Source: Eledone cirrhosa
Taxonomy: Eukaryota
Direction: 5' to 3'
DNA: 64,000 bases
Assembly (NCBI GenBank): GCA_964016885.1
Contig: OZ024743.1
Coordinates: 103,540,001-103,604,000 of the forward strand
In this document: one piece after another, positions 3,163 through 61,100 of the stretch
Position numbering within the stretch: position 1 is the stretch's first letter
Layout: each line of letters opens with the position of its first letter
Program-made: the position numbers and the translations under genes
Notes under the pieces: generated by a model
What the model was told of the DNA's origin: nothing
The model's database searches: none
The model's input: the letters and a program-made list of their open reading frames with translations, nothing else

Positions 3163-3205
<43 letters not shown>

Positions 3206-3793
3206 AAAACGAAGAATCAGTGATGCATCGAAACACAATTTATTAACGTATTACAATTGTTTCTCAGGTCAACAGCTCGAGGTACGATCTTTTTGTGGAT
3301 CGAACCAGACTCTGGATTCGCAAGATTCGCCAATTCCTCAGATACGTGTAGCGACTTCGAGGCAAATCTTCCGTCGATGCTATTCTGTCTCTTTGAGTTT
3401 TCCCCATCTGTCATCATCCTGCTTACGCGGCCCATCCATTGGTCAAGAATTTGAGTCGTCATCTGTATTTTTGACCAGTCAAAACTGCCCACTATCTATT
3501 TCCATTCAGACGTGAGTAGTCACTCAACTTAATTCTCCCGCCAGAATTATTGGCAGGAGGTTGTAGTCTGCCTTGCGTGCCCCTAGCTTGCCCGTACCTC
3601 GACATACACACCCCAACACATACGTGTGCTCACACATAGACACTCAGAACTCACGATCACATATGTATTTGTCCGGACGTGTACACACACCCACCCACCC
3701 GTACGTGTACACATGTGCCCACATACATACATATATTCACAACCTCATACATAGGAACATGTATACACAGATATACACACACATGTACACGTA

Positions 3794-3847
<54 letters not shown>

Positions 3848-3919
3848 GGTCCCGGGTTGAGTCGGGGATAACCACAGTAAGTAAGGTACTCAATACATGG
3901 CAGAGTAAAATTTTTTTAT

Positions 3920-4011
3920 TTTATAGAAGGAGCTTCTACAGGACTAGTACTTCCTGAAGATTTCATCTGAATGAAACAGTACTAGTCCTGTAGAAGCTCC
4001 TTCTATAAAAT
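3920..4011. repeat. Palindrome with truncated hammerhead-like core (PLE inverted junction)
   Basis: TTTATAGAAGGAGCTTCTACAGGACTAGTAC and its reverse complement enclose CTGAAGA-TTCA/TGAA-GAAAC-AGTACT-AGTC. Confidence 0.55.
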
Positions 4012-4236
4012 ATAAAATATATATATATATATATATAACCTGATTAGTGTTTTAGTTGTTTTTGGTATTGTGTTGGTAGATTTACCTGCCGCAATTTTCA
4101 ATTTGTCAAGCTGTCTAAACGTATGTTATTACTCTAAGGCCTGCAACCTTATTGGGTGCTTTGCTGCTCATTCCTAATTGTAGGTCGTTAGCTTGGCCAC
4201 AGCCAAAGCTTCGAGTTTACTAAGCTTCCCCTTGTA

Positions 4237-6854: not shown

Positions 6855-7240
6855 TCACATCCCATGGACCTGTGCCGTCCCCCTGACTGGCGTTCGCACC
6901 CCCAGAGGGCTCAAGTTAGATCTATCCGGGAGTTCCCATGCGGAGAGTGTGCATTTTCGTTGATGTCTGCATGCCATGATGATCTCTGATTTCAGGTTGA
7001 CTGCGTCACCCTTTAATCTCACTATCTCCATGGCCTCGGACAAGCACAGCCTGCACTTACCCTCGCCAGCCGAGTAAGCATTTGCACGTTGAACGATACA
7101 CCATATCAGGTCTGCCAGTCTAGTGGAGTGTCTCTTGCTCCGGTCCTTGAATGATTTCGCGTGATTGTATGCCCTCGATTTAAAGGCGATGTATGTGTGC
7201 CTAGCGTTGTGCGTGCTAACCACACATTTATAGATAATGT
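6855..7240 (-). pseudogene. Penelope-like GIY-YIG endonuclease fragment
   Basis: IIYKCVV...[13 protein letters not shown]...CRLCLSE...[12 protein letters not shown] motifs. Confidence 0.8.
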
Positions 7241-12109: not shown

Positions 12110-13850
12110 TAGTTAGGATTGTTATCTAAGAATCTTAGAAATTCCAATATAGAGAAGAACAAAAAGCAAATTAGAAAATTCCTCAAGGACTATTACAGCC
12201 TTAACATCACTTTTGAAAACACTTCAAAAGTAGCTAATTTCCTTGATGTTACCTTAGATCTCTCTACGAATACTTATCAACCATACCACAAACCTAACCA
12301 GAATCTACATTATGTACATTCACGATCTAACCACCCAGGCTCTATACTCAAGAACTTAGTATATAACATTTCTCTTAGACTTTCTAAATTATCTAAGATA
12401 TATTTTATAATAATGCACCCTTCTACAACGAGGCCTTAACTAGAAGTGGATATAAATAAAAAATCTCATATATCCGCAACACTTCTATGGACCAAAACAT
12501 AAAACCTAGCAAAAACTACAAACACCAAAAAATACCATTGAAACAAATACCTAAAGTGGTTATTCCTATTACACCAAACAACCGAAAAACCACAACAACT
12601 ATTACTACACGATCTATGACCAATGTTATCAACCCACATATGAATACCAAGCACTCAAAATCTCATAATCTACCAAAAAATAACACCAAATACAACCACG
12701 ATGATTTATCAAATTCCACAAATAAGGACACTAACCATAGGAACTCTTCTAGAAAAACAACACAATAATATAAGAGATAATAAAAACTTAACTAAAAACC
12801 GCAAAAGAAACATAACATGGTACAACGCACCCTTCAACCTGCAAACTATTGGACAAATCCCCAAAAAATTCTTTGAAATACTACATAAACATTTTCCACC
12901 AAACCACAGATACCACCAAATATTTAACAAATATACTGTTAAATTCTCATACTCTACATCAAACAATTTCAAACAAAAAATAAGCAACTACATTTATAAA
13001 CTTTAAAATAATATGACTACACCTTTTAAAGAGACAAATAATACAATCCTTCAACCTAGAAAACGCAACCACCCAAATCACCAACACAAAAACAACAGAA
13101 CATAAAATTACAATACAACTCTAGCACCAAACCACCCACAAAGCAACCTTCATTCTCCTGCTATCATTAATTACAATAGGAATAGCTCAAGAATAAATGA
13201 GAATAGTATAGGCACCCCCCCCCAAACCATCTTACGTATGGCTGTAATTGCAGAAATAGAAGCATTTGCCCCTTAAATGGAAACTGTTTGATAAATAATG
13301 TAGTATTTAAATGCACTGTGTCTACTACAGACTCCAACAAAACATATATAGGATCTACATCAAACACATTTAAGAAAAGATTTTACGCACACTCTAGTAG
13401 TTTCAACAATACTAAACTAGCAAACACCACATCTTTAGCTGAAGTGGTAAATAATTATAAAAAGAAAAAAATAGATTTTAAGTTATCGTGGAACACCATT
13501 CTACAAAAAACTCCATACCTTAGAAACAGGAGGGAATGCGGATTATGTTCAGGAGAGATCTTGGAAATTACTAAATCTAAGGACGATTTATTAAACAAAA
13601 GACAGGAATGGCTCATAGTCTGTAATCACCGTATACGAAAAACATTTAAATACTATAAACCTAATTAAATATTCTAAATAGCAACTCACTATAATTCCGT
13701 ATAGAATAACATTTATTAGTACCTCTTTCCCCTAATTATAGGCTTTCATGCTTATTTTTTCCTATTAATGTTTTAGCTTCCTTAGATTTATGCGTTAATG
13801 ACTAAAATACACAGCCACCCGTAATTGCATGAGTGAAAATAAACATCTAT
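12110..13850 (+). mobile_element. Penelope-like element (Naiad/Neptune-type), RT C-terminus + Cys linker + GIY-YIG, frameshifted
   Basis: NFLDVTLDL..TYQPYHKPN..YVHSRSNHP; RKRNITWYNAPF; CNCRNRSICPLNGNCL; VVFKC..TYIGST.NTFKKRFYAH..CGLCSGE..LNKRQE...CNHR. Confidence 0.9.
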
Positions 13851-13886
13851 GTATGATATGGAAATATATTTATGTGTGTATATATT

Positions 13887-13981
<95 letters not shown>

Positions 13982-14087
13982 GTATATATATAAAAATTTC
14001 AAGTTATCAATATTGTAGTGATAATATATCGTCACGTTAGAGATGAACAGCGTACGTGTAGCTTTGCTCAACGAGTATAAATGTTAT

Positions 14088-16846
<2,759 letters not shown>

Positions 16847-17856: not shown

Positions 17857-17882
17857 ATATGTATATATATAAGTTGTAATAG

Positions 17883-18066
17883 GATGAAAACGAAATTTCA
17901 TTTCTCACTCTTAGTACGGCACGTACTTAAAAAAAAGAAAAAAGGTGACGTGGTTGCCTTAACACCGTACGGCATAAATTAAGGCTGTCCGTTTGTTTAC
18001 AAATGGACAAAGCGGGCGTTATAATAAACGTCCGCTAAACTGATACGTACATATATGTATGTGTAC

Positions 18067-18105
<39 letters not shown>

Positions 18106-18160
18106 TGCTACTGTACGTCTGTATACATATATGTATGTACGTATACATACATACTTACAT
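17883..18160. mobile_element. Diverged fragment of the retrozyme-like family seen at 1-820
   Basis: TGAAAACGAAATTTCATTTCTCACTCTTAGTACGGC matches 83-118, and 17950-18150 matches about 210-380 (CTACTGTACGTCTGTATACATATATGTATGTACGT). No ribozyme retained. Confidence 0.6.
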
Positions 18161-18583: not shown

Positions 18584-18655
18584 TGACGTACATGGGAGTC
18601 GAACCCACATCTTTGGTTATCCGGACCACTGAGCTACCATTTACACCAACACATC
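18584..18655 (-). pseudogene. tRNA-like sequence (tRNA pseudogene / Pol III head)
   Basis: Acceptor GATGTGT/GTACGTC, A-box TGGTGTAAATGG, T-arm GTGGG-TTCGACT-CCCAT; anticodon loop atypical (CCGGATA). Confidence 0.55.
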
Positions 18656-22448: not shown

Positions 22449-25400
22449 CTAAATATAGACGGTGCTGCACAGTTTTTTGGGCCAGTGGACCCTACGACCT
22501 GAACGGGTCGTGGTCTTGTAACGTGGCGATGGTGGTGGTGTAGGGACAGGTGATGATGGTGGATCAGGAACAGTCGTTCGCTCAACAGGCAAATACGAAG
22601 GGGTTCGTGGATCAGGAACCACAGCGTCCGTATCAAGGTGCGCCTGCTTAAGCCTGTCTAATGTAACTGTCACCCTGGACCCCTTAATATCTAACGTGAA
22701 ATGCTTAGCCGAGCGCGCTAAGACACGGTAAGGTCCAGTGTAAGGCTGTGTGTGAGCGGGGGCTTCACCGTATCATTCCTTACAAAGACATGCGTCCACG
22801 AGGCAATATCCCTCGGGACAGCAGTCTTGACAGTTTGTTTCCTAGTGTCCATTGGCGGTAAATCCTGGAAATAGGAGCGCAAACGGGACACGTAGGAAGC
22901 GTGATCTTGGGCATCAAGATCGATAGGGGCAAGCATTTGCCCGGGCAACGTCAGAGGGGCACCGTACAGTACTTCGGCCGGTGAAAATCCAAAGTCGACC
23001 TTCACCGTTGACCGAATCCCTAGTAGCACAATAGGGAGGTACTCGCTCCAATGCGCCGAGTCCATTAAGGAGGCCTTCAGTTGGCGGTGAAAACGCTCCA
23101 CCATACCATTCGAAGCGGGATGGTATGCCGTAGTTCGAATGCGTTTAGCACCAATTATTTTTGACAGCTCGAGGAAAAGGCTCGACTCGAACTGTCGTCC
23201 ACGGTCGGTAGTTATTGTGGATGGAACTCCATAACGAGAGATCCATCCAGACACAAGAGCACGTGCTGTTGTCTCCGCGGTGATGTTTTTCAAGGGGATG
23301 ACCTCAGGCCATCTCGAAAAACGGTCAATGACGGTAAGCAGATAAGAAAAACCATCGCTGACAGGCCAAGGTCCCACTATGTCAATATCAATATGCGAAA
23401 AACGCGCATCTGGGTTAGCAAAGGTACCCAGGGGAGTTTTGACGTGTCGATGGACCTTTGATTTCTGGCAAGCGACGCAGGAACGGCACCAAGCAGCAAT
23501 TTCACGCCTCATATTTGGCCAGAAAAATCTAGCTGATATGAGCTTTGCTGTGGCAGAAGATCCTGGATGCGAGATACAATGTAATCCCAGAAACACAGTC
23601 CGAAAATGATTCTCTGGAACGAAGGGCCTAGGCACGTCCAAAGAGACGTCGCAGAGAATTTGGCCAACTGCAGTCGACAGAGGCAAGTATTTCATCTCGC
23701 AATTCGCAAACTCGGGCGATGTGACATCCATTGACTCAAGGGGAGGCTGATCCGCAGCCAAACGAGTCAGATCTATGTCAGAGGGTGACGAGATCGCTGT
23801 CACGGGTAAGCATCGGCCGCTGTATTTAGTGAACCCGGAATGTGCTGGATATCACTCGTATATTGCGAGATGAAATCAAGGTGTCTCGTCTCTCTGGGCG
23901 AGTATTTATCAGCCTTCGCTCTCAAAGCAAAAGTCAATGGTTTATGGTCAGTGAGGATAGTAAACTGTCTACCCTCTAGCACATGTGAAAAATGTTTCAC
24001 GGCCAAAAAGATGGCTAAAAGCTCTCTTCCAAAGGTGCTGTAGCGCGTCTCAGCAGGATTTAGCTTTTTGGAAAAAAAACTCCAGCGGTTGCTGGTAACC
24101 ATTGATGTTTTGCTGTAGTACTGCGCCCACAGCGATATCCGATGCATCAACACAAAGCGTTAGCCTTGCACCGGGTACCGGGTGAGTCAGTAACGAAGCA
24201 TTAGCCAAAGCAGTTTTGGCGTGCTGAAAATCAGCAAGTTGAGTGTCTGTCAAAGAAATATCTTTGTTCTTCCTCCGACAATTTTTCAAAATTTCTGTCA
24301 GGGAGAAAAGCAACTTGGCACAATTTGGCACGAAACGCCTATAAAAGTTAACCAGACCTAAGAACTGGCGTAACTGACGTAGTGAGGTCGGTGGAGGCAA
24401 ATCCTCTATGACCTTAACTCGCTCAGGCCGGGGTCGAATTCCGTCAGCATCGATGACGTGACCCAAGAAAGTCAGTGACTCAGCGCCAAAAACACATTTG
24501 GGTGCATTAAGCTGCACGTTATACGCCTTCAATCGGCGGAAAAGAAGATTCAAATGGTGCGTATGCTGCTCTGGAGAAGAACTAGCAATGAGCAGATCGT
24601 CAATATAGGTATAGACGAAATCGAGGCCGCGAGTAACCTCATCCATAAACCGCTGAAAAGTACTAGCGGCATTCCTTAATCCGAACGGCATAGTCAAAAA
24701 CTCGAAAGACCCAAATGGCGTAACTATAGCCGTTTTTGGAATGTCACTTTTATGGACAGGAATTTGATGGTACGCACGAATTAAATCCAGTTTGGAGAAT
24801 ATCTTGCATCCCTGCAACGAAGACGCAAAGTCTTGCAGATGAGGGATAGGATAACGGTCCGGTACCGTTATCGAATTCAGGCGTCGATAATCTCCAGTAG
24901 GTCTCCAATCGCCATTCGCTTTCGGTACCATGTGCAATGGGGACGCCCACGGGCTCGTGGACGGACGAATAATCCCCATTTGCAGCATAGGATCAAACTC
25001 TGATCGTGCTGCTTTGAGTTTGTCCGGAGGCAAGCGACGAGGGCGAGAGAAAACGGGAGCACCAGTTGTAGATATGAAGTGCTCCGTGGTATGAGTAGGT
25101 TCATCAAATCGAAAATTCCCCTGTGTCAGTTGCGGGAACGAGTTCAACAACGCATGGAAAGGATCACCGGTGTTAGCAAGAAAAAATATCGGGCTAACCG
25201 TTGGAACTCCTGCTGCCTTGCCAACAACAGCTAATCCCGTGATGCCATCAATTAGGCGTTTACCACGAAGGTCCACCGTCAATGAAAAATGGTGGAGAAA
25301 ATCCGCGCCTAGAATCGGATACGGCAAGGCAGCGACAGTAAATATCCATTTAAACTCGCGCCGCAGATTACGAAACTGCAAAGGTAACGAGATTTGTCCG

Positions 25401-25627
25401 AAAGTTCGAATCGGCGAACAATTTACTGCCTGCAACTCAATAGGCGTCTCAGGGGGAGTCTCCTTCATACAACACACAGGCCATACGGAACAAGCTGCAC
25501 CTGTGTCAACCAGAAAAGCTCTACCTGACAGCAGGTCCTCAATGAAAAAGTGGCGGTTAGATGTTGTTTCGCAGAGCGCACTATCCGCCGTTAGTGACTC
25601 TGGTCGTCTTTTCCCTCGTAAGCACAA
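22449..25627 (-). CDS. pol: Gypsy pol (protease, RT, RNase H, integrase), broken by frameshifts
   Basis: LVDTGA; [10 protein letters not shown]; DYRRLN; YIDDLL; DAS..VGA; RELLA; TDHKPL; HPG..C..CQ; IDRFSRW; TDRGRQFES; [11 protein letters not shown]. Confidence 0.93.
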
Positions 25628-26371
25628 GGAGGCCTACAACGGGCGGCTTTTTTACCATATCTTTCACGGTAATAACAATATGTTGTTCCTGGTGTGTTGG
25701 AAGGGCTACGGTGGCGAGAAGTTGAATAACGTCGTGAGCGGCTCCCCTGCCGTCCAAAGGACCTGAATTCCGTGCACAACTCCGCCACTTGACGAGTCAT
25801 GGCTTCCATAGTGGTGATTAATTTGTCATTAGACGCTGACGAGCGTGATTGAGGAAGAGAAGAGGAAGCAACGTACTTTGGCTTCGAAGTGTCTCTCTTC
25901 GTCACCTCTACAATTTTGTCAGCAGAGACAGCAATGTGATCCAGGGTATTCACCTCTAGCATATGGGCTAGGATCGCCTGTACCTCTTGAGGTAGGCGAG
26001 AGAAGAACAATTGCTTCAGGAAAGGGCTATCCTGATCTTGGGAATCGCTCAAATCCCGCAAATGCCGGAGAAAAGCGGTAGGGGTCCTGTCACCTAATCG
26101 TTCGTCCTCGATCAGTGACCGAAAACGACTCTCTACCGACTTACAATTCCTCCTCAAAATCTCGCCCTTCAAAAACTCATACGTCAAGTCAGAGGGGGGG
26201 GGGGTCTGTAATTAGGTCTTGGACCGAATCTGCTAGATTAGGGGGAAGGCCGCTAATCAGTACAGCGAGGCGCTGGTCAGATTCGGTCTTACAGACCGTA
26301 AAATACGCCTGTAACTGGGCAAACCACATCTTAGGTTTTCCAGTAAAGGCGGGCAAATGTGGTACATTCAT
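25591..26371 (-). CDS. gag: Gypsy gag (frameshift at a G homopolymer near 26190)
   Basis: P.F...PKMWFAQ; LGDRTPT.FLR.LR; LF..RLP..VQ.IL; CYYR.RYG.KA.RC.PPC knuckle. Confidence 0.85.
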
Positions 26372-28094: not shown

Positions 28095-28492
28095 TTTAAG
28101 GGCCACCACCTCTAATCGGAGTCCTCTTTGCTGACAGCTCTGCCGCTGGGACTTTTAAGATTGAAGGATCCAAGGCCTTCTTCGGGGCTACCAAGTTTAA
28201 ATTGTTACCATCGGATTCATCTTTGCTGGCAGCACCGCCGCTGAGATATTTCAAAGTGAACGTTCAAAGGTCCTCTTCAGGGCCACCAACCATAAATTGT
28301 TATCGCTGGATTCGTCTTTGCTGGCAGCACCGCCGCTGAGACTTTTAAAAGTGAACGATCCAAGGCTCTCTTTAAGGCCACCAACTTTAAATTGTTACCA
28401 TCGGATTCGTCTTTGCTGGCAGCACCGCCGCAGAGATATGTCAAAGTGAACGTTCAAAGGCCCTCTTTAGGGCAAACCCCTATAAATTGTTA
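28095..28492. repeat. Tandem repeat of about 95 bp (4+ units, alternating) in the Helitron 3' region
   Basis: TCTTTGCTG at about 28125, 28221, 28315 and 28410. Confidence 0.8.
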
Positions 28493-28916
28493 CTTCTATA
28501 GTCGTGTTTAACGTAAGTCTTTCGGTTCATTTGAACGACTACTCCATTGAGAGTTATACCGGGCAACGCCGGGTACCTCTGCTAGTTTACTGATAATAGA
28601 TTCTACCGGATATATATATCCACTAGACATACTGTGGCCTTTCATTGATAATTGTTATTGTTGCGATGAAGTTTCCCACTTCACCAGTTAATTCCACTTA
28701 TCATTCAATTGCTTTTTGTTGTTGTTTTAACGTATTTTTTGTGTTAACTATGTGAAGAGGCAACTAAAGAGATAGAGGAGTTGTATGGGCACTGAGGTAA
28801 CATACAATGGTAGGTTGAAAGATTCGGAGGCTGGCTGATTATGAAGGAGTGGCGCAAGCGTTGTGAATTAATTAATTTCAAGTCTTCTTATTAATAACTA
28901 CATTGTTTCTTTCCAG

Positions 28917-41781: not shown

Positions 41782-44700
41782 TTTTCTCTTTCTCTTAATT
41801 TTGAGTATATTTTTTGACCGGCCACCTTCCTGGTGGCAAGGTTGTAAAAGAAAAGAAATTGTCATCCCTTGAATCGCAAGAATGTTTTGCAAATTTTGAA
41901 GGTGCCAGCTATCGCAGCCATTTGTAGACTATGAATTAGGGAGCTGCGCTTTTTGTCCGCAAATCCAAGTTCAGTCATACTTTGGTCCAAGCGGGTTGGT
42001 ATATAACCCGTAGCACCAATAATGATGGGTATGAAGCTAAAGGTGTATCTTGGATACTGGATTTGTAAACTCCTCATCAATGGTCCGTAGATGTCCTCCT
42101 TCTCCTGTATTTTTCTGACAACGTTTACATCAAGTGGGCAGCTGATCTCCACAACAGAACACGTTTTCAATGTGTGGTCCCAAACTACAATATCAGGCCG
42201 GTTGTGCTTTAATTTGGTGGCAGTTTTTATTTTCAGGTTCCACCAGTATTCCTTAGTGCCATCTGTCTCAATATATTCTTCCTCGTTTGTTGTTGATTTT
42301 GTTTTCCGAAGTGCGTTCCAGATGGTTCTAGCTATCCCATCGTGTCTCATGGGGAGGTAGTAGCGAGATGACATTCTTTCGCAGCTGGCAACATTGTGGC
42401 TTACATCCTCGATCTTTGTTTTACATAGCCTACATTTATTGTCAGCTGCTGGCCCTCCTCTTTTGTGCAGCAGATATTTGGTAGGGAGTTCTTGTTCCTG
42501 TATTGCATAGAGATATCCCTCAAGGTGTGATGTCATAAACTTGTCGGAACTCCATGCCAGGCTTTTTGAGTGGTTTATCCCCTCTATGGTCTGTGTTTTA
42601 CGCCTCAAGTATCCATGCACAACTTTTTCTGTAAATTGGTCAATTTTTTTTTCTTGTTTGAACATTGAATAGGATCTTCCGATTTCTCTGGGTGAGAGAT
42701 TTATATCGGGCTTTATTCCATATCTCTCCTCCAGATCAGTCGCTATTCTAATGATATTTCTTTTTTCATGGTCATAAACCTGGGCAAGATGGTTGCCAAC
42801 CTTTTTTCCTCTGTTGAAGGTGTTGCTTCAGTGTCACTATCCGGGTCTCATATGTTGTTAATATTGATTTTAGACCCCGGCCACCTTCCTTGCGTGAGAA
42901 GTATAGCCTATCCACATCACCATTGATGTTAAAGTTCCCAGTAACACTGAGAAGTTTTCGAGTTCTAACATCCATCTCACTTAGTTCTTGCAATGACCAG
43001 TTCAGTAGGCCAAATGTTGGCGTTAGAATTGGCACAGCATAAGTATTGTGGGCAATGTATTTGTTGTATGCTGACAGTTCTGATGACCATATTTTCTTTA
43101 CTCTTCTGAGGTATTCAGTTCTGGTTCTCTCCTTATTTATGGGTCCATCATATCTGACATTCTCATCCTGTCCAAGATATCTGTAGTTGTCACCTGACTG
43201 CAGAGGTTGTATTGTCAGGCCGTTCATCTCTAGATTTCTAGAGGAGGGCACAGCTCTTCCACGTTTTACTGCCAAATATGCACACTTGGACTCACCAAAT
43301 TTCATTTTGATGTCGGTTGAAAATTGTGTAATGAGGTCCAATTGTTTCTTGATGTCATTGATATTTGGCCCATACAACTTCAGGTCATCAACAAAGAAAA
43401 GATGGGAGATACTTCTGGTCCCACTTCTTTGTCGACCTTGTTTCCTGAGTAGGTAAGATAGTGGATTCAGTGAGAGAACGAAGAGTAGCACTGACAAGCT
43501 ATCACCCTGAAAGATGCCCTTCTGGTAATGTATCTTATCAGTCTTAACCTGCTCCTTCTCACCTCTAAGGATCAAACTGGTGTACCAGTTCTTGGTCAGG
43601 CGTTCAACAGCAGCTACCAATGGTTGTGGGACTTTAGCTAACTGTAAAGCCTTAACAATCCACCCATGAGGTACACTATCAAATGCTTTTTGATAGTCCA
43701 GCCACACGACAGTCATGTTTCTGCGATTCTTTGTTGTTTTTTCCTGAATCATTTTGTTAGTTAGTAGGTGATCTATGCAACCCCACACCTCCCTCTTTCC
43801 ACCAGCTTGCTCAGGTGTTATGATGTTGTTGGTAGCACAGTGATCCTGTAAGAACAGGTTAAGGCACCCAGTATATAATTTATACATGATGTTTTGGCAG
43901 GCAATTGGGCGGTAATTTTTAGCAAGGGTGGTTTGGCTATTTTTGGGAATGAGGAGAGTAGAGGCAGTTGATAACCATCTGGGCAGTTCTTGTGTGCCCT
44001 TAATGGTTTCTGTAAACAGCCGTATGAGATCTTGCCGATAGAAAGTGAAATTCTTCAACCAGTATCCTGTAATGAGGTCTGGGCCTGGCGATTTCCTATT
44101 CGACATTTTCTGTAGAGCTGTTTCCAGTATTGACCCATCTATGTCATATTGTTTTGTCTGGACATGTTGGCAGTAGTCCTGTTCCAGTTCTTTTAGCCAA
44201 TTAGCTTGTCTGTTGAATCCGTCATCCGTTTCCCATACAGATCTCCAGTAGCTCTCAACCTGTTCTTTTGAAGGGGTGTCATTTACAGGGATTGAGCTTT
44301 TGCCACCGAAGCTGCGATAAACTGATTTAGGATCTCTGGCAAACAATCTATTTAGCACTTGTCGTTTATGTGCTGTTGACTTATATTTTAGTCTTTCTGT
44401 TGTAGCTGTGAGTTGTTGTTTCAACTGGTGTAATTTGGAGTTCAAAGTTTTAAATTTTGTATCTCCAAATCTTCTCTCTAACTTTTTCTTTAGGTCTTCC
44501 TGGTGTTGTGTGAAGTTGCTCTCTATGTTGCATTTCATAACGACTGCGATGTGTGAGATACTTCGTCTCAGGGACAAAATTTTGGTTTTTAAATTTCGCA
44601 TCCACGCTGGTTCAGGCTTTCTGTTTGTATCTTGATTGCGTGGTTTTAGATGTGTGTTATATGCTAGCAATGTGACAGCTGAAACATATAACAAAACATT

Positions 44701-45810
44701 AAGCGTTTCAAATGTCGTTTCTACACCTTTAGATCGTATAGCCTTCAGATAATTGCCAGCTATTTCGTTCACCGCTTCCAATTCCAATTTAGTGGGTTCT
44801 TTACTGACTCTAGTGTTGTATGGTCTGTCACTCACATTAAGGCTGTGTATCTCTTGAAACATATCATTCCATATCACTTGTAGGGAGCCCACAAGTTTTT
44901 GGTGCTCTGTTTGTTCAGTAGAGTCATGAATTTCAGCCTCGTTGTTGATGTGGTGACAATTACTACTAGAGTCAGCTGACCTTTCTCGCTGTTCTTCAGT
45001 GGAAGTGGGATGAATTTCAGCAAAATTGTTGGTGAGCTGTTCACTGTTAGATTTAGCTGGCCATTCCCTTTGTCTGTCAGTGGAGGTGGGGTGGTTGTCT
45101 ACAAGGGCTGTATTTGTAGTATCACTCGATTCCGTTAGATGTATCAATTTACATCTAATGATACGTTTTGCCTGTTCATTTAAATGCTTTGGAGAAAAGT
45201 CTAATTCTGGGTGTTTGGAGTTCCATAAAGTTTTTAGCCTTTGCATAAAACCGAACTTTTGGGGTTCAGATTGTTTGTATGCTTCATATAATACTTTGTT
45301 AAGCTCGTAGGTCCACTGTATACAACGGTTGTAATTGCGATTTGGTCGAAGGAGACTTGTACTTTTTGCCATGATGAGTTCGTCTATTCACTAATATTTC
45401 GTATTTATTTTTCAAAATAGTCGATGATCTTCTTTAAAAGTTACGACAAAGTTCTGTCAGAATCAAATTTAAAGTTATTCACAGCTTGAGTAATATTTCT
45501 TTTCAGTTAGTTTTTAATTCTACAGCTGTGTTTTATATAAATGTAATATTTCTTTATAAAGGTAATATAACAACGTTGCATTTATATGTTAAAGTGTATG
45601 TATCGTTCATATATCATAAGTGTATGTATCGTTCATATAAATAGGTGTTTTACAACACACTTACAGTTCAAACACTTATGTAGAATTATTGTATGTAATC
45701 TTACCGCGTAATGTAGCTCAACTTTTTCCAATATATGGTATGTTGCCTTCATGTAAGCCGTAATTACACACGTCCGATTATCGGACACTGACCACAACGG
45801 TCGCCATTTT
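41782..45810 (-). mobile_element. Near full-length R4/Dong-like non-LTR retrotransposon in (TATG)n
   Basis: Single RT-RLE ORF region with 5' and 3' UTRs; both ends abut (TATG)n; 3' UTR hairpin at 41820-41838. Confidence 0.9.
41862..45372 (-). CDS. RT + CCHC zinc knuckle + restriction-like endonuclease (one frameshift near 42800)
   Basis: N-terminal WT.ELN..LY..Y..W domain; NYRPIAC; LDYQKAFDSVPH; GIFQGDSLS; HLFFVDD; CRLC..EDVSH.VASC; RHD; RPDIVV; EISCP; KEDIY. Confidence 0.92.
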
Positions 45811-49537: not shown

Positions 49538-50022
49538 TCTAAACTATAATAAAGTAAGAAGCGCGGGACTGCGTACGGTTTATAATTTTTTATCCGATTA
49601 GTAAAATAAGTTGGATTACTTTGAAATAAATAATGAATGAATATTACATAATTTATCTACTAAATTTCGTGGCTGTTCATTAAATATATTTTATTATTTA
49701 TTTAAAGATTCACGTCTTTAAAATTTTCAAATGTCAACACTTCCGGTGGCGATCGCTTAAATAAACATATTAATTTTCTGTCACTAATTTTCTCCTAATG
49801 CAGTTTATATATAATATCGTCTTTTTTTTAGTGTATCATGGATTACGTTACTGATTACATAAGACAGTGTAACACAGTCTCTCTTCAATTTCTGTGTATA
49901 TTGTCAATTACGATTTTATTTGACGTATCATATCTACATGTATATATACTTGCATATAATATCAATATACACACCACACATGCTAGCAGAAAACCACCCT
50001 TCGAGTGGGGTTTCTGTTAGTA
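49538..50022 (+). mobile_element. Non-autonomous Helitron-like element (copy 1)
   Basis: Starts A|TCTAAACTATAATAAA and ends in hairpin CAGAAAACCACCC-TTCG-AGTGGGGTTTCTG + TTAG; inverted diverged copy at 57607-58149. Confidence 0.6.
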
Positions 50023-50610
50023 TTAGTAATGACTTGAATATTTATCACAGGGTCCCAAGTTTGACGACCTCATCACAGGGGACCTTGGAAATTGATTATC
50101 ACTCATCTCTGATCTCGGTCAGGCGAACGATAACAACCTGAAACCAACTCATAGAAGAAGAAGAAGAAGAAGAAGAAGAAGAAGAAGAAGAAGAAGAAGA
50201 AGAAGAAGAAGAAGAAGAAGAAGAAGAAGAAGAAGAAGAAGAAGAAGAAGAAGAAGAAGAAGAAGAAGAAGAAGAAGAAGAAGAAGAAGAAGAAGAAGAA
50301 GAAGAAGAAGAAGATCTCTTACTGATCAATTTGAATGTGTAGATGAAATGCCTTGTGGTATTTATATCTCCTCTTTTACATTCGTGGACGCAACGTCACG
50401 AATTTTTTGTGCTAGTGTCAAGCCTTGGCTTGATGGAAATTGTTAAGACGTCCGTCGGAGGGACTGTACCTGCATTTCAAAGCAGCAGCTTTGTGACACA
50501 CGTTCAGTGTGTAGATGTCTGTGTAATGCTCGGCCAGTTACACGTTCATTTCTTAAGCAGGCTGTCCGAAAAAGTGGGATACTCATCGTCGTAACCGACG
50601 GAAATTCAGT

Positions 50611-50652
<42 letters not shown>

Positions 50653-50683
50653 TTAATGGAAACTATCTTTATAAAACCATATT

Positions 50684-50744
50684 TATTTTATTATATATAC
50701 TTCAAGGGTACCAACATTTTGGTACGCTCTCATCAGATAAAATA
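50684..50744 (-). ncRNA. PLE hammerhead-like motif (GAAG core variant); mirror copy at 56276-56336 (+)
   Basis: TATTTTAT-CTGATGA-GAGCGTACCA..TGGTACCCTT-GAAG-TATATA-TA-ATAAAATA. Confidence 0.6.
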
Positions 50745-51552
50745 CAAAAGTTGTTTTATAGATAGTGACATATCCAAAAACAAGAACTTGTCGTTTTAAG
50801 TTCTGTTTCAATAGTGAAAGAAATTCAAATCTTAGGATGAATATGTTAATGGGGATAACGTGAAGTTGAAAAAGATCGTTATATTTAGACGCTAGGTAAA
50901 TTTACATAATTATTAAGATTATTTGTTAAGGGAAGAAGAGAGAGAGGTTAATATTAATATTAGGGTGTAAGAAAATGTAAGGAATTAATATAAGAAAAAA
51001 GTATATTATAATTAGGAATAGACTATTATTAATATATAATTGTATGGATCGTATTAGTGATGGTGTAAAGAGAGTGAAATAATTATATTTATTTATTTAA
51101 TTATATAACTATATAATTTTGATAGTATCTTTAATATAACATGAGAATTATAAATGTGTTGAAGTGGTAGAATATCAATTTTAAAAAGTGAGAGATACTA
51201 ATTATTGGGTCTATTCTAATCGTGAGTTTTAATATTATATAGATAATTTTTATAAGTATAAAAACAAATAACGAAACGAAATTAAATTTCGTTTCGTTTG
51301 TAACTCACTTTTGTATGACTGACGCTTAAACAATTAAGTTAAAAATGTACATCCACATATGTATACTGAAATACTAGTATGCATATGAATACACACACGT
51401 ATACATATGTAGATGTACCAAGTCTTTCACTGGTCACTTTACTGTGAGTGGCCAGCTATTCTGTATGTAAACATACAGACAAACCGGTTTTTAGAGTCAT
51501 ACTGGTTTTTGAGGAAACACCTTTCCTCTATTCTCCAGAAAGCCAGACAAGG

Positions 51553-51597
51553 AATATTGAACTAGTTTCGTTGTTGTTACAACTCATCAGCAATATT
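51553..51597 (-). ncRNA. Type I hammerhead ribozyme, copy 1
   Basis: Reverse complement reads AATATTG-CTGATGA-GTTGT-AACA-ACAAC-GAAA-CTAG-TT-CAATATT. Confidence 0.92.
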
Positions 51598-52018
51598 TAC
51601 CTATCTACCGGCCTTTCTGGAGAATCGTAAAAGCACATATCGTTATATGCTTTTTCTATGAAAATTAGTAGTGGGCAGACTAATTTGCATAGAGTGTGAG
51701 TACGTACCGGTTCAACGGAGACGATAAAAACAAATAACGAAACGAAATTAAATTTCGTTTCGTTTGTAACTCACTTTTGTATGACTGACGCTTAAACAAT
51801 TAAGTTAAAAATGTACATCCACATATGTATACTGAAATACTAGTATGCATATGAATACACACACGTATACATATGTAGATGTACCAAGTCTTTCACTGGT
51901 CACTTTACTGTGAGTGGCCAGCTATTCTGTATGTAAACACACAGACAAACCGGTTTTTAGAGTCATACTGGTTTTTGAGGAAACACCTTTCCTCTATTCT
52001 CCAGAAAGCCAGACAAGG

Positions 52019-52063
52019 AATATTGAACTAGTTTCGTTGTTGTTACAACTCATCAGCAATATT
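52019..52063 (-). ncRNA. Type I hammerhead ribozyme, copy 2
   Basis: Identical to 51553-51597. Confidence 0.92.
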
Positions 52064-52484
52064 TACCTATCTACCGGCCTTTCTGGAGAATCGTAAAAGC
52101 ACATATCGTTATATGCTTTTTCTATGAAAATTAGTAGTGGGCAGACTAATTTGCATAGAGTGTGAGTACGTACCGGTTCAACGGAGACGATAAAAACAAA
52201 TAACGAAACGAAATTAAATTTCGTTTCGTTTGTAACTCACTTTTGTATGACTGACGCTTAAACAATTAAGTTAAAAATGTACATCCACATATGTATACTG
52301 GAATACTAGTATGCATATGAATACACACACGTATACATATGTAGATGTACCAAGTCTTTCACTGGTCACTTTACTGTGAGTGGCCAGCTATTCTGTATGT
52401 AAACACACAGACAAACCGGATTTTAGAGTCATACTGGTTTTTGAGGAAACACCTTTCCTCTATTCTCCAGAAAGCCAGACAAGG

Positions 52485-52529
52485 AATATTGAACTAGTTT
52501 CGTTGTTGTTACAACTCATCAGCAATATT
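52485..52529 (-). ncRNA. Type I hammerhead ribozyme, copy 3
   Basis: Identical to 51553-51597. Confidence 0.92.
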
Positions 52530-53271
52530 TACCTATCTACCGGCCTTTCTGGAGAATCGTAAAAGCACATATCGTTATATGCTTTTTCTATGAAAATTAG
52601 TAGTGGGCAGACTAATTTGCATAGAGTGTGAGTACGTACCGGTTCAACGGAGACGATAAAAACAAATAACGAAACGAAATTAAATTTCGTTTCGTTTGTA
52701 ACTCACTTTTGTATGACTTGACGCTTAAACAATTAAGTTAAAAATGTACATCCACATATGGTATACTGAAAGTACTAGTATGCATATGAGAGTACACACA
52801 CGTATACATATGTAGATGTACCAAGTCTTTCACTGGTCAGCTTTACTGGTGAGTGGCCAGCTATTCTGTATGTAAACACACAGACAAACCGGTTTTTAGA
52901 GTCATACTCTAAAAACCGGTTTGTCTGTGTGTTTACATACAGAATAGCTGGCCACTCACAGTAAAGTGACCAGTGAAAGACTTGGTACATCTACATATGT
53001 ATACGTGTGTGTATTCATATGCATACTAGTATTTCAGTATACATATGTGGATGTACATTTTTAACTTAATTGTTTAAGCGTCAGTCATACAAAAGTGAGT
53101 TACAAACGAAACGAAATTTAATTTCGTTTCGTTATTTGTTTTTATCGTCTCCGTTGAACCGGTACGTACTCACACTCTATGCAAATTAGTCTGCCCACTA
53201 CTAATTTTCATAGAAAAAGCATATAACGATATGTGCTTTTACGATTCTCCAGAAAGGCCGGTAGATAGGTA

Positions 53272-53316
53272 AATATTGCTGATGAGTTGTAACAACAACG
53301 AAACTAGTTCAATATT
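53272..53316 (+). ncRNA. Type I hammerhead ribozyme, copy 4 (inverted block)
   Basis: AATATTG CTGATGA GTTGT AACA ACAAC GAAA CTAG TT CAATATT; predicted cleavage after 53309 (GUU). Confidence 0.92.
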
Positions 53317-56300
53317 CCTTGTCTGGCTTTCTGGAGAATAGAGGAAAGGTGTTTCCTCAAAAACCAGTATGACTCTAAAAACCGGTTTGTCTGTGTGTTT
53401 ACATACAGAATAGCTGGCCACTCACAGTAAAGTGACCAGTGAAAGACTTGGTACATCTACATATGTATACGTGTGTGTATTCATATGCATACTAGTATTT
53501 CAGTATACATATGTGGATGTACATTTTTAACTTAATTGTTTTATAAGTATATTTATGAAGAATTAGGGTTGTAAGTATATATTATTTTATTATATTACAA
53601 CAGTTTATTTATATAAATAATTTTGGTGAGTATATATGTTGTTTTTATTAATAGATAGATAATTTAAATATTTTTTATATATGTTAAGGGTTTCGATGAA
53701 TTTCTTGTTTACATTTTCAAGTTCTAATTTTATTATAGAAGATTATTTTGTATATTCAATAGTTGTATCAAGATAGGAATACATTTACAAACTTTACGAA
53801 GTTAACGAAATTATACAAAAAAAATTAATATTTATCTAAAGTTTAGTTGTTACTTAGAAGAAATGTTTAAGCGCGTTACATTATAAAGGAGAAGATAACT
53901 CCAATATTTCTTAGTTAAAATAGTTAAGTTATATTTATTCTAGAATTTACTTTAAAAAAGAAAATATTCAATTAAGATATATGTAAAATATATGTCGAAA
54001 AATGTTATATATTATTTTATATAAGATTTTATAGTATCATATATTACATATTTTCTAAGATAAAAACGCTTTTATATGTGTATTTAGATAGGATTCATTA
54101 TATCTATGCATATGTTAATGTCTATATAGTCTATTAGGAATAAATATTAGACATCAAAATTATATTCAGAGACATCATTAAAACCATCACAAAAAAGATA
54201 TATTTCAAAATATCATTTAAAAAGAATATCATTTTTTAAAAATATCATTTAAAAAGAAAAATATCATTTTTTTTTAAATCACAAAACATCAACAAAACAT
54301 AGTGAAGACATATAAAATGTAAACAAGTGAGATATAGATAATATTTTCTATAGATTGTAGATACTTCTGAACGTCTTAGTTTCGCAATGTTTGCAAGAGT
54401 TGAATAATTCTTTCTTTTTATTAATAGAGTTTTGATTGGTAAGTATATGAAATATCTCCTCAATACATAAATGACAAATTCTTGAGAGAGCCATATTTCG
54501 GTATGCGGGCGCTTTCGAAATCGTTCCCCAAGAGATTGAATAGTCAATGTTATTGTCTTTTAAGTACCAAATTAGATGTGAAAGTGATGTTGAAAATATA
54601 TAACTATATAGGATAATATATATAAGATAAAATATATAACTATATAGGAGCCACTTTTACAAAATTTAAGGAACGCTGGTATAATCACAAATATACATTT
54701 GATAGATCAGACATCACTTTCACATCTAATTTGGTACTTAAAAAACAATAATATTAACTATTCAATCTCTTGGGGAATGATTTCAGAAGCACCAGCATAC
54801 CGAAATATGGCTCTCTCAAGGATTTGTCATTTATGTATTGAGGAAATATTTCATATACTTACCAATCAAAACTCTATTAATAAAAAGAAATAATTATTCA
54901 ACCCTTGCAAACATCGCCAAACTAAGGCGTTCAGAAGTATCTACAATCTATAAAAAATATTATCTATATCTCACTTGTTTACATTTTATATGTCCTCACT
55001 ATGTTTTGATGATGTTTTGTGAGGGGTTTTTTAAATGATATTTTTTTTAAATGATATTCTTTTAAAATGATATTTTGAAATATATCTCTTTTGTGATTGT
55101 TTTAATGATGTTTCTGAATATACTTTTGATATCTGTAATATTTATTCCTAATACACTATATAGACATTAACATATGCATAGATATAAGGAATTCTATCTA
55201 AATACACATATAAAAGCGTTTTTATCTTAGAAAATATGTAATATATGATACTATAAAATCTTATATAAAATAATATATAAAGTTTTTCGACATATATTTT
55301 ACATATATCTTAATTGAATATTTTTTTTTTAAAGTAAATTCTAGAATAAGTATAACTTAACTATTTTAACTAAAAAATATTGGAGTTATCTTCTCCTTTA
55401 TAATGTAACGTGCTTAAACATTTCTTCTAAGTAACAACTAAACTTTAGATAAATATTAATTTTTTTTGTATAATTTCGTTAACTTCGTAAATTTTGTAAA
55501 TGTATTACTATCTTGATGCAACTATTGAATATACAAAACAATCTTCTATAATAAAATTAGAACTACTTCCTTTTTCTTAAATATATATTGAAAATGTAAA
55601 CAAGAAATTCATCGAAACCCTTAACATATATAAAAAATATTTAAATTATCTATCTATTAATAAAAACAACATATATACTCACCAAAATTATTTATATAAA
55701 TAACCTGTTGTAATATAATAAAATAAAATATACGTACAACCCTAATTCTTCATAAATATACTTATAAAAATTATCTATATAATACTAAAACTCACGATTA
55801 GAATAGACCCAATAATTAGTATCTCTCACCTTTTAAAATTGATATTCTACCACTTCAACACATTTATAATTCTCATATTATATTAAAGATACTACCAAAT
55901 TATATAATTATATAATTAAATAAATAAATATAATTATTTCACTCTCTTTACTAATCTCATTACTAATACGATCCATACAATTATATATTAATAATAGTCT
56001 ATTGCTAACTATAATATACTTTTTTCTTATATTCATTCCTTAAATTTTCTAACACCCTAATATTAATATTAACCTCTCTCTCTTCTCCCCTTAAAAAATA
56101 ATCTTAATAATTATTTAAATTTACCTAGCATCTAAATATAACGATCTTTTTCAACTTCACGTTATCCTCATTAACATATTCATCCTAAGATTTGAATTTC
56201 TTTCACTATTTAAACAGAACTTAAAACGACAAGTTCTTGTTTTTGGATATGTCACTATCTATAAAACAACTTTTGTATTTTATCTGATGAGAGCGTACCA

Positions 56301-56467
56301 AAATGTTGGTACCCTTGAAGTATATATAATAAAATAAATATGGTTTTATAAAGATAGTTTCCATTTATCAATATTATTGATATTATACTCCAGAAGAATC
56401 CTGTAGAGTGCTTCGAATCTGTTATAAATAAATTTGTTGAATAAACAACAAATTAAATAACTCTTTG

Positions 56468-56522
<55 letters not shown>

Positions 56523-56962: not shown

Positions 56963-57606
56963 GGGGTAGTAAATGAGGATCGCTATAGAAGAAAAATTAT
57001 TTTCCTCTATGAAAGTTATTTTCCTCTATGAATATATTAGAGTTGTCAGCAAGTTTTGATAATGCCAGGCACTGCTATTTCAAGATTTGCTACTCTTTCA
57101 TGAGTGGCACTCACTCAACCCGTACTGTCGTGGAAAATATACGAGAGTCTATAAAGAATTTTGTGAGATGATCATTTGCTGGATATGCTCATTTGCATAT
57201 ACTAAATAGAAATTAACGGCCGGAAATGCTAATTTGCATTTAGTGCAAACTTGGATGTTTATATTTAATTGTCAGTAGCAATAAACTGGGTTCCAGCATG
57301 ATAGAGATGTGTATGAAGACATTTTAAAATATATTATACGTTTATATACAAAAAAGAACATATGGGCAACGTCGCTATCGAAGAAAAATGTTTTTTCTTA
57401 ACGTAACGAAAAAAAAATTATTATACTCTATTTTCCTTTGTGAATGTATCACAGAGTTGCCAATAAATTTTGCGAATGTCTGGCAGCACTGTTTCAAGAT
57501 TTGCTCTTTCATCAGTGACACTTACTTAACCCATACTGACGTGGTAATAGACTAGGGTCTGTATAGAAGTTTGCCTGATGATCATTTCCAGCCGATGTAT
57601 TCCATA

Positions 57607-58149
57607 CTAGCAGAAAAACCCCCCTTCGGGTGGTTTTCTGGTAGTATGTGTAGTGTGCATATTGATATTATACACAAATAAGTGTACATAGAATACGTCA
57701 AATAAAATCGTAATTGACATTATGCACAGAAATTGAAGAGAGACTGTGTTACACTGTCTTCTGTAATCAGTAAAGTAATCCATGATATATTTTAAAAAGA
57801 CGATATCATATATAAACTATATTAAATGTAATGAAAACGAAAAGGAGAAAATTAGCGACGGAAATATAAACATTATGATATAACGATGCAAATATATAAG
57901 CGATAAGTGATATAGCGTACGTTATATCATATCCGGAAGTGTTGACATTTGGAAATTTTAAAAGAATTGAATCTTAAAATAAATGATCATTATATATCAT
58001 AATATTTATGTTTAATCAACAGCTACTGAATTTAGTACATAAATTATGTAATATTCATTCATTATTTATTCAAAGTAATCCAACTTACTTTACTAACGGG
58101 ATAAAAAAAATATATTCAGGACGCAATCTCGCACTCTTCCTTTTATTAT
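57607..58149 (-). mobile_element. Non-autonomous Helitron-like element (copy 2), 5' tip split off by the RTE insertion
   Basis: Reverse-complement homologue of 49538-50022; ends with hairpin + CTAG|T on the minus strand. Confidence 0.6.
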
Positions 58150-61100
58150 CACCTTGACCGACCAGTCTGCCGGGCGCCCGTTCGGCGCTGCTGGGTACAG
58201 CACGCTGTCCATTCCTCTCTGGTTCGTGCTTTCCTCATCTATGTAGACCCAATCATATTCCTAAAATCATAACTCCACCTTCGTGGAGGCCTTCCTGGGT
58301 GGTTGTTTCCGCTCGCGCGGGTACCACTCGGCATATGCGTGGGTTCACCGATTATCGGTGAACCGGGTGACGTGTCCAACCCATCTGAACTTGCTGCACA
58401 TATATTCTGTGATGACGTCCCTCACGCCGGACTTCTGTCCGATGACTTCGCTCTTGGTGTGCTCTCTCAACGAGATTCCTAGCATTGATCTCTCCATGGC
58501 TCTTTGAGCCGTTACCAGCCTCTTCTCTTCTCTGTTCGTTGTAGCCCAAGTTCCACTGCCATATAACATTGCAGGTAAAACTGTGCTGTTGAAGAGGTTG
58601 GCGCGAGTGGTCTTGTCCAACCTCACCTTGAGCACATCCCTTATGCCGTTGAACACCTTCCATCCGGCCCTTACTCTCCGCGAGATCTCCCTCTCAATGT
58701 CTCGGCGCATGTTCACTTCTTGTCCTAGGTAGATGTATTCGTCCACCTCCTCTATTTCATTACCGCCAACCACCATTCGACCTGTTGGTACGTTGTCGGA
58801 CCGCATGAACTTCGTTTTCATGCGGTTCATCTTGATGCCTACTGCAGAGCTTTTGCTGTCGAGCTCCGTCGGCATGGTCTGAAGCTGATCTGTGGTTTCA
58901 GCGATGAGTACGATGTCATCAGCGAAACGGAGGTGGGTAAGTAGCTCGGCGTTGATGTTGACACCGCCTTGCCAGTCAATGCCTCTGATGATCTGCTCGA
59001 GACACGGGGTGAAAAGTTTTGGAGAGATCGTATCTCCTTGCTTCACTCCCTTCTCGACCGGCACTCGTACGGGTGATGACAGCAGAGCTATGTCGGTGGT
59101 GCATCCGGAATTTACCTTCTTGAGCAATTGAACGTATTGCGCCTCGACTCCTTGCCTCTGCAACGAGCTCAGCACTGCGTTGTTTTCGACGCTGTCGAAG
59201 GCCTTCTCGTAGTCTACGAACGCGACACAAAGGCATCTTGTACTCTTTCGCTCGCTCAAGCAGTTGTGTCAGAGTAAATATGTGGTCCATCGTGCTGTAG
59301 TTCTTCCGGAAGCCGGCTTGCTTTCTCGGTTGCTGACGTGATAACCTGTTCAGGATTATCTTCGTGAACAGCTTGTACACGTGAGACAGCAGGCATATGG
59401 GTCGGTAGTTCTTCAGGTCTTCTTTATCGCCTTCTTGTATAGCAGGATGGTATTCGACTCTTTCCACTGCGAGAGTATTCTTCCCTCGTCCAGATAGTGT
59501 GTGAATCGCTCGGCGAGGATTTTCCAGAGCTACTCTCCGCCTGACTTCAACACCTCCGATGTTATGCCGTCTTTCCCTGGCGCCTTTCCGCTTTTCATCA
59601 AGCCGACGGCTCTTTCGACCTCACCGACAAGGATGAGTGGCACATTTTCTTCCTGTTGGAGTGACGGCAACGACTGCACATTCCCGGCAGACTTGAAGAG
59701 CTTGGTGTAGAAGTCTTCGCAAACCTTTTTCCACCTCACCCTTGTCGCTGGCCGGTACTCCAACTGTGTTCTTTAGGGTCGTCACCTCCGATCTGTACAT
59801 TGCCATGTCCCTCTCGCATTTCTTGAGGCTCTTCATTTCCTCTGCGGCCTTCAGGAGCTTCTCCATCCAGTATGCCTCGAGGTCTCTCTTCAGTTGTTGA
59901 TGTATCACTCTGCTGAGAAGGGAATATTCGAGGTGATCTTCAGCTGTCCTCTTCATATTCTTCCTCTTCTCAAGCAACTTCATAGTTTCCCCCCGAGAAT
60001 CTTCCCTTCCGCTCCCTCGGGCACACACCCTTAGCCTTCCTCAAGCACTCGTTCAGTTTCCTTATCAGTGAGTCGTAGTCAGCGCCTATGCCGTCTCCTT
60101 GACGCCAATTTTCCTGCAAGATGGCTTCTTGCAGCTGCGCCTCCTTGAAAACCCGGACGCGTTCTCCCTTCGACGCCAAATGCAGCGCCTTCTTCTCCCT
60201 CGTCCGGTCGATGACGACCTTCGCCCTCACCAGACGATGATCACTGCCAGTGTTGAATGGTGTTATAACGGAGACGTCCTGCAATATGCGTCGCTTGTCG
60301 ACCAGGATGTAGTCGATCTCGTTTTGGTGCTCAGAATTTGGCGATACCCAGGTCCATCTCTTCTCCTCCTTCTTCCTGAGTAGGCTGTTTCCGATGTAAA
60401 ACCGTCTCGCCTCCGCCATGGTGACCAGACGCTCTCCTCTCTCACTTCGCTCTCCTATGCCGAATCCTCCGACATACTCTTCCCCTTGCCGTCCCTGTCC
60501 GACCTTTGCGTTGAAGTCTCCCATCATGGCGGTGTAAGTGGACTTCACAGCTAGCACTTTGTCTAGCTGGCGATAGAATTCTTCCACCTCATCGTCGTCG
60601 CTGACACTTGTGGGAGCGTAGGTCTGGACGATCTTGGGGGTGGCCTTCCCTGAGAGGTTCTCGTTCACACCAATCCGCGACGATATGAACTGGCAAGAAG
60701 CGACCTTCGAAGCCCATTCCTTGCTTACGATGAACCCTATATATCCGACCGATCTAGCACCCTCTGCGTATCCATCTTGCCATCGCGAACTCACCTCCTT
60801 CTTCTGGCGGATCTCACACAACCCTAATACGTCGCACCTGATCTTCTTCTTCTCCTCCATTAGGTGATTCAGTTATTGCCCCCCTGCCAAAGACCTGCAG
60901 TTGTAGGTGCATATGCCAAGGTTAGTCCTGTTCCATGGCGGCCTTCGGGAACCTGTGATTCTTAGCAGCCTCTCGTCGCTCGGGTTGCACTCCGCCGTCG
61001 TGGAGTGGTCCGATTGACACGCAGGGTACTGAGGCCCTTTTCTTCGTGCTGTTTTAGCCATAAGATGACCCCATCCCACTGGCTGGGCGGACAGGCCGGT

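Follow-up and report, generated by a model that had tools for sequence, protein, structure and literature searches.

A two-armed retrozyme insertion with fixed ends in Eledone cirrhosa, probably written by a Penelope-like element

We analysed a window of 64,000 nucleotides (nt) from Eledone cirrhosa (assembly GCA_964016885.1, contig OZ024743.1, positions 103,540,001 to 103,604,000), in which a tandem array of a 466-bp repeat carrying a hammerhead ribozyme interrupts a Penelope-like element (PLE). The array is best read as a young, two-armed retrozyme insert with fixed ends and a 13-bp target-site duplication, which the reverse transcriptase (RT)/GIY-YIG enzyme of a PLE would have written by priming both nicked target strands at two internal sites of the RNA, probably a circular monomer; we put the probability of this reading at about three in four. 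Mobilisation of non-LTR (long terminal repeat) retrozymes by PLEs has been proposed in print, through circles (PMC7229834; PMC7761336); a sequence-only reading that preceded our analysis of this window had mentioned that PLE mobilisation was proposed.

The insertion and its landing site

The array is bounded by the 13-mer TTTTATAAGTATA, found on the plus strand at 51248-51260 on the left and at 53539-53551 on the right; the last 3 nt of the left copy and the first 3 nt of the right copy also belong to the array. The same 13-mer is present once, reverse-complemented on the minus strand, at 55757-55769 in the opposite arm of the host PLE, and the left and right flanks of the array, when joined, reproduce this unoccupied paralogous site with its single copy. 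Thirty-seven alignments to other PLE copies of the host family cross the insertion site without an insert, and a 13-mer repeated across a random pair of junctions in the host arm turned up in 2 of 20,000 trials.

Unit positions are numbered here from the predicted hammerhead cut site. The long arm (51258-52908, RNA sense on the minus strand) comprises 3.54 units and terminates on the outside at unit base 302 (the fixed long end), whereas the short arm (52906-53541, RNA sense on the plus strand) comprises 1.36 units and terminates at unit base 232 (the short end). A 70-nt tail (unit 233-302; 51258-51327, minus strand) is present at the long end only and contains a 13-bp hairpin 12 nt before the end. 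The arms meet head to head at 52903-52908, in a near-perfect mirror with a 3-nt loop (52903-52905) and a 3-nt arm overlap (52906-52908; unit 57 and 63). The innermost copy carries seven single-base insertions (52718-52848), possibly assembly errors, that have no mirrored counterparts in the other arm. The duplication, the empty site, the 5'-to-5' meeting of the two blocks near 52903 and the position of the array ends away from the cleavage site, all described in the sequence-only reading, are confirmed by these observations.

The array has a period of 466 bp, with a hammerhead core in every unit that is predicted to be a minimal type I ribozyme with a 2-bp palindromic stem III. The first copy in the long arm lies at 51553-51597 on the minus strand (predicted cut between 51560 and 51559), with copies 2 and 3 at 466 and 932 nt to its right; the short arm has its hammerhead at 53272-53316 on the plus strand (predicted cut between 53309 and 53310). 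An Rfam scan at the gathering threshold found no hammerhead; in E-value mode, HH9 matched 53261-53332 with 38.6 bits, under the 52-bit cut-off. In stems I and II, the retrozyme subfamilies differ by compensatory changes, and the 466-nt monomer folds far more strongly than its shuffles (z -11.3). The array contains no reading frame of 100 amino acids (aa) and no LTR, the entire unit being repeated and the ends abutting the target. Judged by its tandem hammerhead units of a few hundred bp, the lack of a coding frame or LTR and its dispersal with duplications of more than 4 bp, the 466-bp repeat can be classed as a non-LTR retrozyme, whose RNA would be expected to cut itself and to accumulate in linear and circular form.

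The features that it has in common with the metazoan non-LTR retrozymes of PMC7229834, PMC7761336 and bioRxiv 10.64898/2026.07.22.740005 include non-coding tandem units, a type I hammerhead, low GC content, a strongly folded RNA, duplications of more than 4 bp and co-occurring PLEs; the unit is slightly longer than the 170-400 nt given in the 2020 paper (Cervera and de la Pena, PMC7229834). The ends of a sister hammerhead family, which has 61-65% identity to the unit, lie at two homologous points. An inverted array and a fragment of this sister family, with the same palindromic stem III, are located at 1-834 and 17875-18156 of the window.

The landing site is itself a 5'-truncated palindromic element that extends from 50632 to about 56473. 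Its inverted, 5'-truncated arm of Hydra type (50632-54593, minus strand) has a short end at about 50632 and a hammerhead core at 50736, and is the arm interrupted by the array. The main arm (54625-56473, plus strand) comprises a broken GIY-YIG remnant (54626-54941), the 3' region and a hammerhead core at 56284; its long end, at about 56473, adjoins (TA)n. The host family has the DKT and CxCX5C motifs, a hammerhead, (TA)n targets, and long and short ends about 90 nt apart; automatic end calling on PLEs of this type yielded 17 long/short pairs among 24, with misclassification in both directions.

Fixed ends and paired arms across the family

A 22-mer from the unit has 5,458 exact occurrences genome-wide (0 for the control). 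Two samples of arrays were examined. Sample A consists of the 40 arrays that best match the full unit, that of the window included; these were not selected by their ends, and the sample is biased toward arrays containing a full unit. Sample B, biased toward arrays with a long end, comes from contig 1, where 40 of the first 45 matches to the long end were taken with their surroundings; it yields 37 independent arrays, after subtraction of L132 (no array), L118 and L131 (which run off the region) and L149 (a duplicate of L148) and addition of a second array in L127. L035 and L036 were counted as one array on the first mapping of ends, and left out of the later analyses of ends and inversions, junctions, divergence and cut-site crossing; L023, L043 and L149 were also excluded from the cut-site-crossing count, and the set of 55 junctions includes L118 and L149. 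The pairs L148/L149, L151/L152 and L155/L156 are near-identical including their flanks, and are either segmental duplications or uncollapsed haplotypes.

The ends of the retrozyme are fixed at two points about 70 bases apart, off the ribozyme cut. The long end falls at unit base 296-302 in 38 of the 40 sample A arrays and, genome-wide, 2,724 long ends compare with three loci that end near the cut. Short ends against (TA)n number at least 600 on the forward strand (the reverse strand gave 1,721, a figure raised by loci counted several times), and the spacing between long and short ends is 67-75 nt. Head-to-head pairing of a long end with a short end at unit 227-235 was found in 30 of 40 arrays in sample A and 30 of 37 in sample B, one of them with an internal deletion. 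Altogether, 33 and 31 arrays, respectively, are inverted, including 3 and 1 with other inversions; 7 and 6 are uninverted, and there is no tail-to-tail array in either sample. Seven of the 60 long/short pairs are micro-inversions of just 8-17 nt that start at the short site, from which it follows that many seemingly uninverted arrays bear the trace of a second priming.

Most retrozyme insertions target (TA)n, where the size of the duplication is unreadable for most retrozyme and PLE inserts alike, and repeats of 17-45 bp found there were set aside as microsatellite effects. Where the target is readable, at 8 loci, the duplications are clean and measure 12-14 bp, and the unit and the target have about 3 nt in common at the long end and 1-6 nt at the short end. 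No added tail, either poly(A) or a simple repeat, was detected at unique targets, where unit and duplication are directly adjacent and the end is internal to the unit.

Several expectations of the sequence-only reading can be assessed against this survey. AT-rich targets, duplications of 12-14 bp and PLE-like inversions were all encountered, but the permuted endpoints that it also anticipated are rejected by the counts of fixed ends given above. It had further held that LINE-like (long interspersed nuclear element) tails, or fixed ends unlike those of PLE insertions, would speak against PLE involvement. LINE-like tails are indeed missing; fixed ends were found, but this part of the argument points the wrong way, because PLEs characteristically have fixed ends and a tail on one side (Frangieh 2024, PMC11167929; Craig 2021, PMC8557442). 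Finally, the locus had been presented as an unusually clear case, whereas the array is typical of its family, which has about 2,700 insertions, and unusual only in its non-microsatellite target, which makes the duplication readable.

Penelope-like elements as candidate helpers

A search with a distant database relative retrieved three young Hydra-type PLE families with intact frames of 713-719 aa. In their inverted copies, long and short ends are paired in 5 of 7, 6 of 6 and 2 of 2 cases. The geometry of the array recurs in these young families as well as in the host, for which the sequence-only reading had noted it. The spacing between the ends is 69-72 nt in the 714-aa family, 75-80 nt in the 719-aa family and 88 nt in the 713-aa family. 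Compared with one copy, the frames of the 714-aa family show 96.0-99.5% identity, 11 of the 16 reaching at least 99%; the family targets (TA)n, and duplications of 11-13 bp are readable at 3 of 10 loci. Besides the terminal hammerhead, members of this family (L171-L180, L203-L209) contain another hammerhead-like stretch, about 83% identical, roughly 400 nt past the stop codon.

The DKT motif, the CxCX5C linker, a C-terminal GIY-YIG, a hammerhead and a (TA)n target are present in the host family and the candidate helpers (read in L153, L171, L182 and L191); in L191 the first residue of DKT is changed and the core is a variant one. By the motifs given in PMC8557442, the host element and the candidate helpers appear to belong to the Hydra clade. 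Hydra-clade PLEs resemble the insertions described here in their (TA)n targets, hammerhead, inverted 5'-truncated arm and tail at one end (Craig 2021, PMC8557442). The retrozyme differs from them in being non-coding and in the repetition of the entire unit, and the tails observed here, of 70-90 nt, are longer than the 30-40 bp given for PLEs generally in the same source. No Pfam match was obtained for the PLE proteins tried.

Our comparison covered Hydra-type families and a single other one, a very young family with frames of up to 1,218 aa and (TA)n targets, which its linker motif suggests is of Neptune type. This Neptune-type PLE (L221-L244, for example G000:C4:250693138) is abundant, with about 100 listed copies that score identically. 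Poseidon- and Naiad-like PLE remnants were also seen. The two-ended footprint thus marks PLEs in general, and by age and spacing the 714-aa family is the best match. Among the candidates, this young, intact Hydra-type family is the most likely helper, a choice that we make tentatively; the other Hydra-type families are possible but less probable sources of the enzyme, and other PLE clades are unlikely ones. The surrounding PLE, whose geometry the sequence-only reading had likened to that of the array, is an improbable helper: its copies are 86-95% identical, with best matches to an intact relative at 95%, its frames are mostly broken and its spacing is about 90 nt. The host family is old and probably provided only the landing site.

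Non-autonomous inserts made in trans have been described for other PLEs. Chlamys MRC1 (PMC8557442) and the trans-mobilised Penelope inserts of Adineta (PMC3846280), the latter with duplications of 8-10 bp, form multicopy head-to-tail or inverted inserts as the retrozyme does; unlike the retrozyme, they share terminal sequence with their helper, and the retrozyme has a hammerhead in each unit. Inverted arms and tails of PLEs are described in both papers, which call their origin unresolved. For Xenopus, a preprint (Li, Clavereau, Pollet 2026; bioRxiv 10.64898/2026.07.22.740005) reports co-occurrence of retrozymes with PLEs and terminal-repeat homology, and its main text contains no junction analysis; the Xenopus retrozyme families resemble PLE terminal repeats, whereas the 466-bp unit does not, among the sampled PLEs. 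Two-armed inversions, fixed ends and a tail are not described in the passages on retrozymes in PMC7229834 and PMC7761336 or in the main text of the preprint. A literature search, with subscription journals and preprint supplements outside its coverage, returned no paper that describes two-armed, fixed-end retrozyme inserts.

Priming, template and competing explanations

For the origin of the two arms, we favour separately primed cDNAs, joined at their far ends and mostly copied from one haplotype. Independent priming is suggested because the inner ends of the two arms are 10 nt or less apart at only 8 of 55 junctions, because arms of different subfamilies are combined at 4 of 53 loci, and because the inner variants in the window are unmirrored; 7 further loci differ at two scattered sites. 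The arms overlap by at least 2 nt at 19 of 33 gapless junctions, against 18% expected. The sequence-only reading had invoked a multimeric cDNA integrated in one event; a single retrotransposition event with target duplication stands, but the data favour two cDNAs, each with its own priming.

In 41 young loci, copies within an arm diverge by 0.62%, those of the two arms by 0.61% and those of separate loci by 1.28%. Ten locus-private variants are fixed in both arms (at 7 loci), compared with 11 partly shared variants and 126 singletons. Most arms (113 of 138) cross the ribozyme cut site, 38 of them twice, and arms of 6-25 units exist, with most source arrays having 1-3 units. In bins chosen post hoc, cDNA ends are enriched just inside the cut (unit 1-30; 14 versus 8.1 expected) and depleted just past it (unit 415-466; 4 versus 13.2 expected). 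Two-sided priming on a circular RNA fits the one-haplotype pattern of the arms, and we lean towards such a template.

The insertion could have proceeded as follows. Arrays would be transcribed, cut by the hammerhead and ligated into 466-nt circles, and the strands of a TA-rich target would be nicked about 13 nt apart, as the 12-14 bp duplications suggest, leaving 3' overhangs. One overhang would pair over about 3 nt at unit 300-302 and be extended, and the other would pair over 1-6 nt at unit 227-235 and be extended in the same RNA direction; the end positions themselves are observed. In most arms synthesis passes through the cut site, in many repeatedly. The cDNA ends would then join with little or no overlap and repair would complete the insert; a tiny or lost second cDNA would leave an array that looks uninverted. 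Both the circular template and the PLE enzyme at this locus are what we infer from the fixed ends, the duplication, the haplotypes and the crossing of the cut site. In vitro, the Poseidon PLE of Anolis nicks and extends both strands, and two internal start sites define the tail (Frangieh 2024, PMC11167929); the AT-rich target, the cutting and extension of both strands and the two internal start sites agree with the scheme proposed here.

Several observations weigh against this scheme. The Poseidon start sites do not differ by strand, whereas here each arm nearly always uses its own site, and the Poseidon start site is not homologous to the cut DNA, with cleavage unneeded, compared with the primer-template matches of 1-6 nt here (PMC11167929). 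Near-mirror junctions exceed chance (P=0.003), so fold-back may account for some of the inversions. The haplotype pattern expected from a circle would also arise if the RNA had been transcribed from a homogeneous source array, and the variants in L025 and L036 recur with periods of two and four units, respectively, a pattern that a monomer circle cannot yield. With regard to the enzyme, 6 of the 10 loci of the 714-aa family are without a measurable duplication and 1 has none, the Neptune-type family also combines (TA)n targeting with two ends, 45-58 nt apart, and the end spacing need not match between parasite and helper. The retrozyme has no sequence similarity to the PLE ends of the host, 714-, 719- and 713-aa families, the score of its alignment to PLE ends being equalled by 233-341 of 500 shuffles, so the helper is not identifiable by homology. 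The array at L035/L036, of about 25 units with a four-unit higher-order pattern, and the two-unit pattern at L025 could derive from a multimeric template or from later amplification at the DNA level.

The same two-sided priming might have used an uncleaved, linear multimeric transcript of an existing array, which we consider a real but distinctly less probable template. The minimal hammerhead, with its 2-bp stem III, probably needs a dimer and may cut poorly, and the PLE studied in vitro did without cleavage (PMC11167929); the periodic variants in L025 and L036 and the skewed distribution of cDNA ends around the cut point in the same direction. Against a linear multimer speak the locus-private variants fixed in all copies of both arms, the arms of 6-25 units where most source arrays have 1-3, and the accumulation of related retrozymes as circles (PMC7229834). 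Two-sided priming could be dispensed with altogether if a single cDNA primed at unit 302 folded back on a small hairpin and copied itself into an inversion, as self-priming has been proposed for the junction palindromes of rotifer Penelope (PMC3846280). The mirror junction in the window and the excess of near-mirror junctions would agree with such fold-back, but 47 of 55 junctions are non-mirror, the inverted arm is often the longer one and stops at a fixed site matching the target, and 4 loci have arms of mixed subfamilies. As a general route fold-back is already contradicted, and we regard it as very improbable; it is unlikely even for the near-mirror junction of the window, because the variants of the inner copies are unmirrored and the short arm stops at the canonical short site.

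Twin priming of the L1 type yields head-to-head inversions and duplications of this size. Mobilisation by a LINE, either RTE or L1-like, is a further candidate explanation; RTs of both kinds lie in the window, and LINEs are named as candidates in PMC7229834. We judge it more improbable still: unique targets show neither poly(A) nor a repeat tail, the first priming is internal, and the second priming occurs at a fixed site with arms that overlap in sequence, unlike L1 twin priming. A LINE-mobilised short interspersed nuclear element (SINE) was rejected on the same observation, that the unit abuts the duplication at unique targets with its end internal to the unit. That the inversion is an assembly or amplification artefact, a fold-back chimera, is hardly credible. 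The seven unexplained single-base insertions beside the junction would suit an artefact, and no spanning contig was found in the 4 of 24 public runs examined, whose contigs are too short; yet long/short geometry with differing inner junctions recurs at 60 of 77 loci, with duplications on both sides, and, at the level of the family, contigs of the public runs have loose ends in (TA)n at each of the two fixed points (51257 and 51327).

Returning to two-sided priming by a PLE, a bolder version can be formulated, which we consider doubtful as a whole. A PLE RT dimer would dock on the 466-nt circle without any sequence in common, prime the strands at two sites 70 nt apart and roll round the circle. 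Priming of the second strand on RNA, at a dedicated site, would be an obligatory step of PLE integration and would explain why all PLEs have an inverted arm and a tail on one side. The young 714-aa Hydra-type protein would be the first helper of an animal retrozyme to be identified.

The remainder of the window and other sampled loci contain further elements. More broken PLE remnants, partly inverted, were identified by tblastn at 12119-15445 and 6945-7226, LTR-retrotransposon RT/RNase H/integrase frames at 22718-25633, a LINE RT with zf-RVT at 41862-45387 and a frameshifted LINE with endonuclease and RT at 58345-60872. A weak tRNA match (18584-18655, minus strand; 35.6 bits) is possibly the head of a SINE, a 95-bp repeat is present in four copies at 28115-28493, and 49546-50023 and 57604-58149, outside the host PLE, form an inverted repeat pair with 74% identity. 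At L107, where the nearby PLE match is repeated, an uninterrupted 425-aa frame (2923-4197, plus strand) may, to judge from its motifs, encode something akin to a ligand-gated ion channel subunit.

Two open questions meet in these insertions, the identity of the enzyme that mobilises retrozymes in animals and the origin of the inverted arm and the single-sided tail in PLEs. Predictions at the level of single bases follow from the junctions, namely a start site for each of the two strands, nicks spaced by about 13 nt and an RNA template of short length. As young candidate enzymes are intact in this genome, a direct in vitro test is possible. If the reading is true, this parasite would be recognised by the shape of its RNA and the spacing of its start sites, and not by shared sequence.

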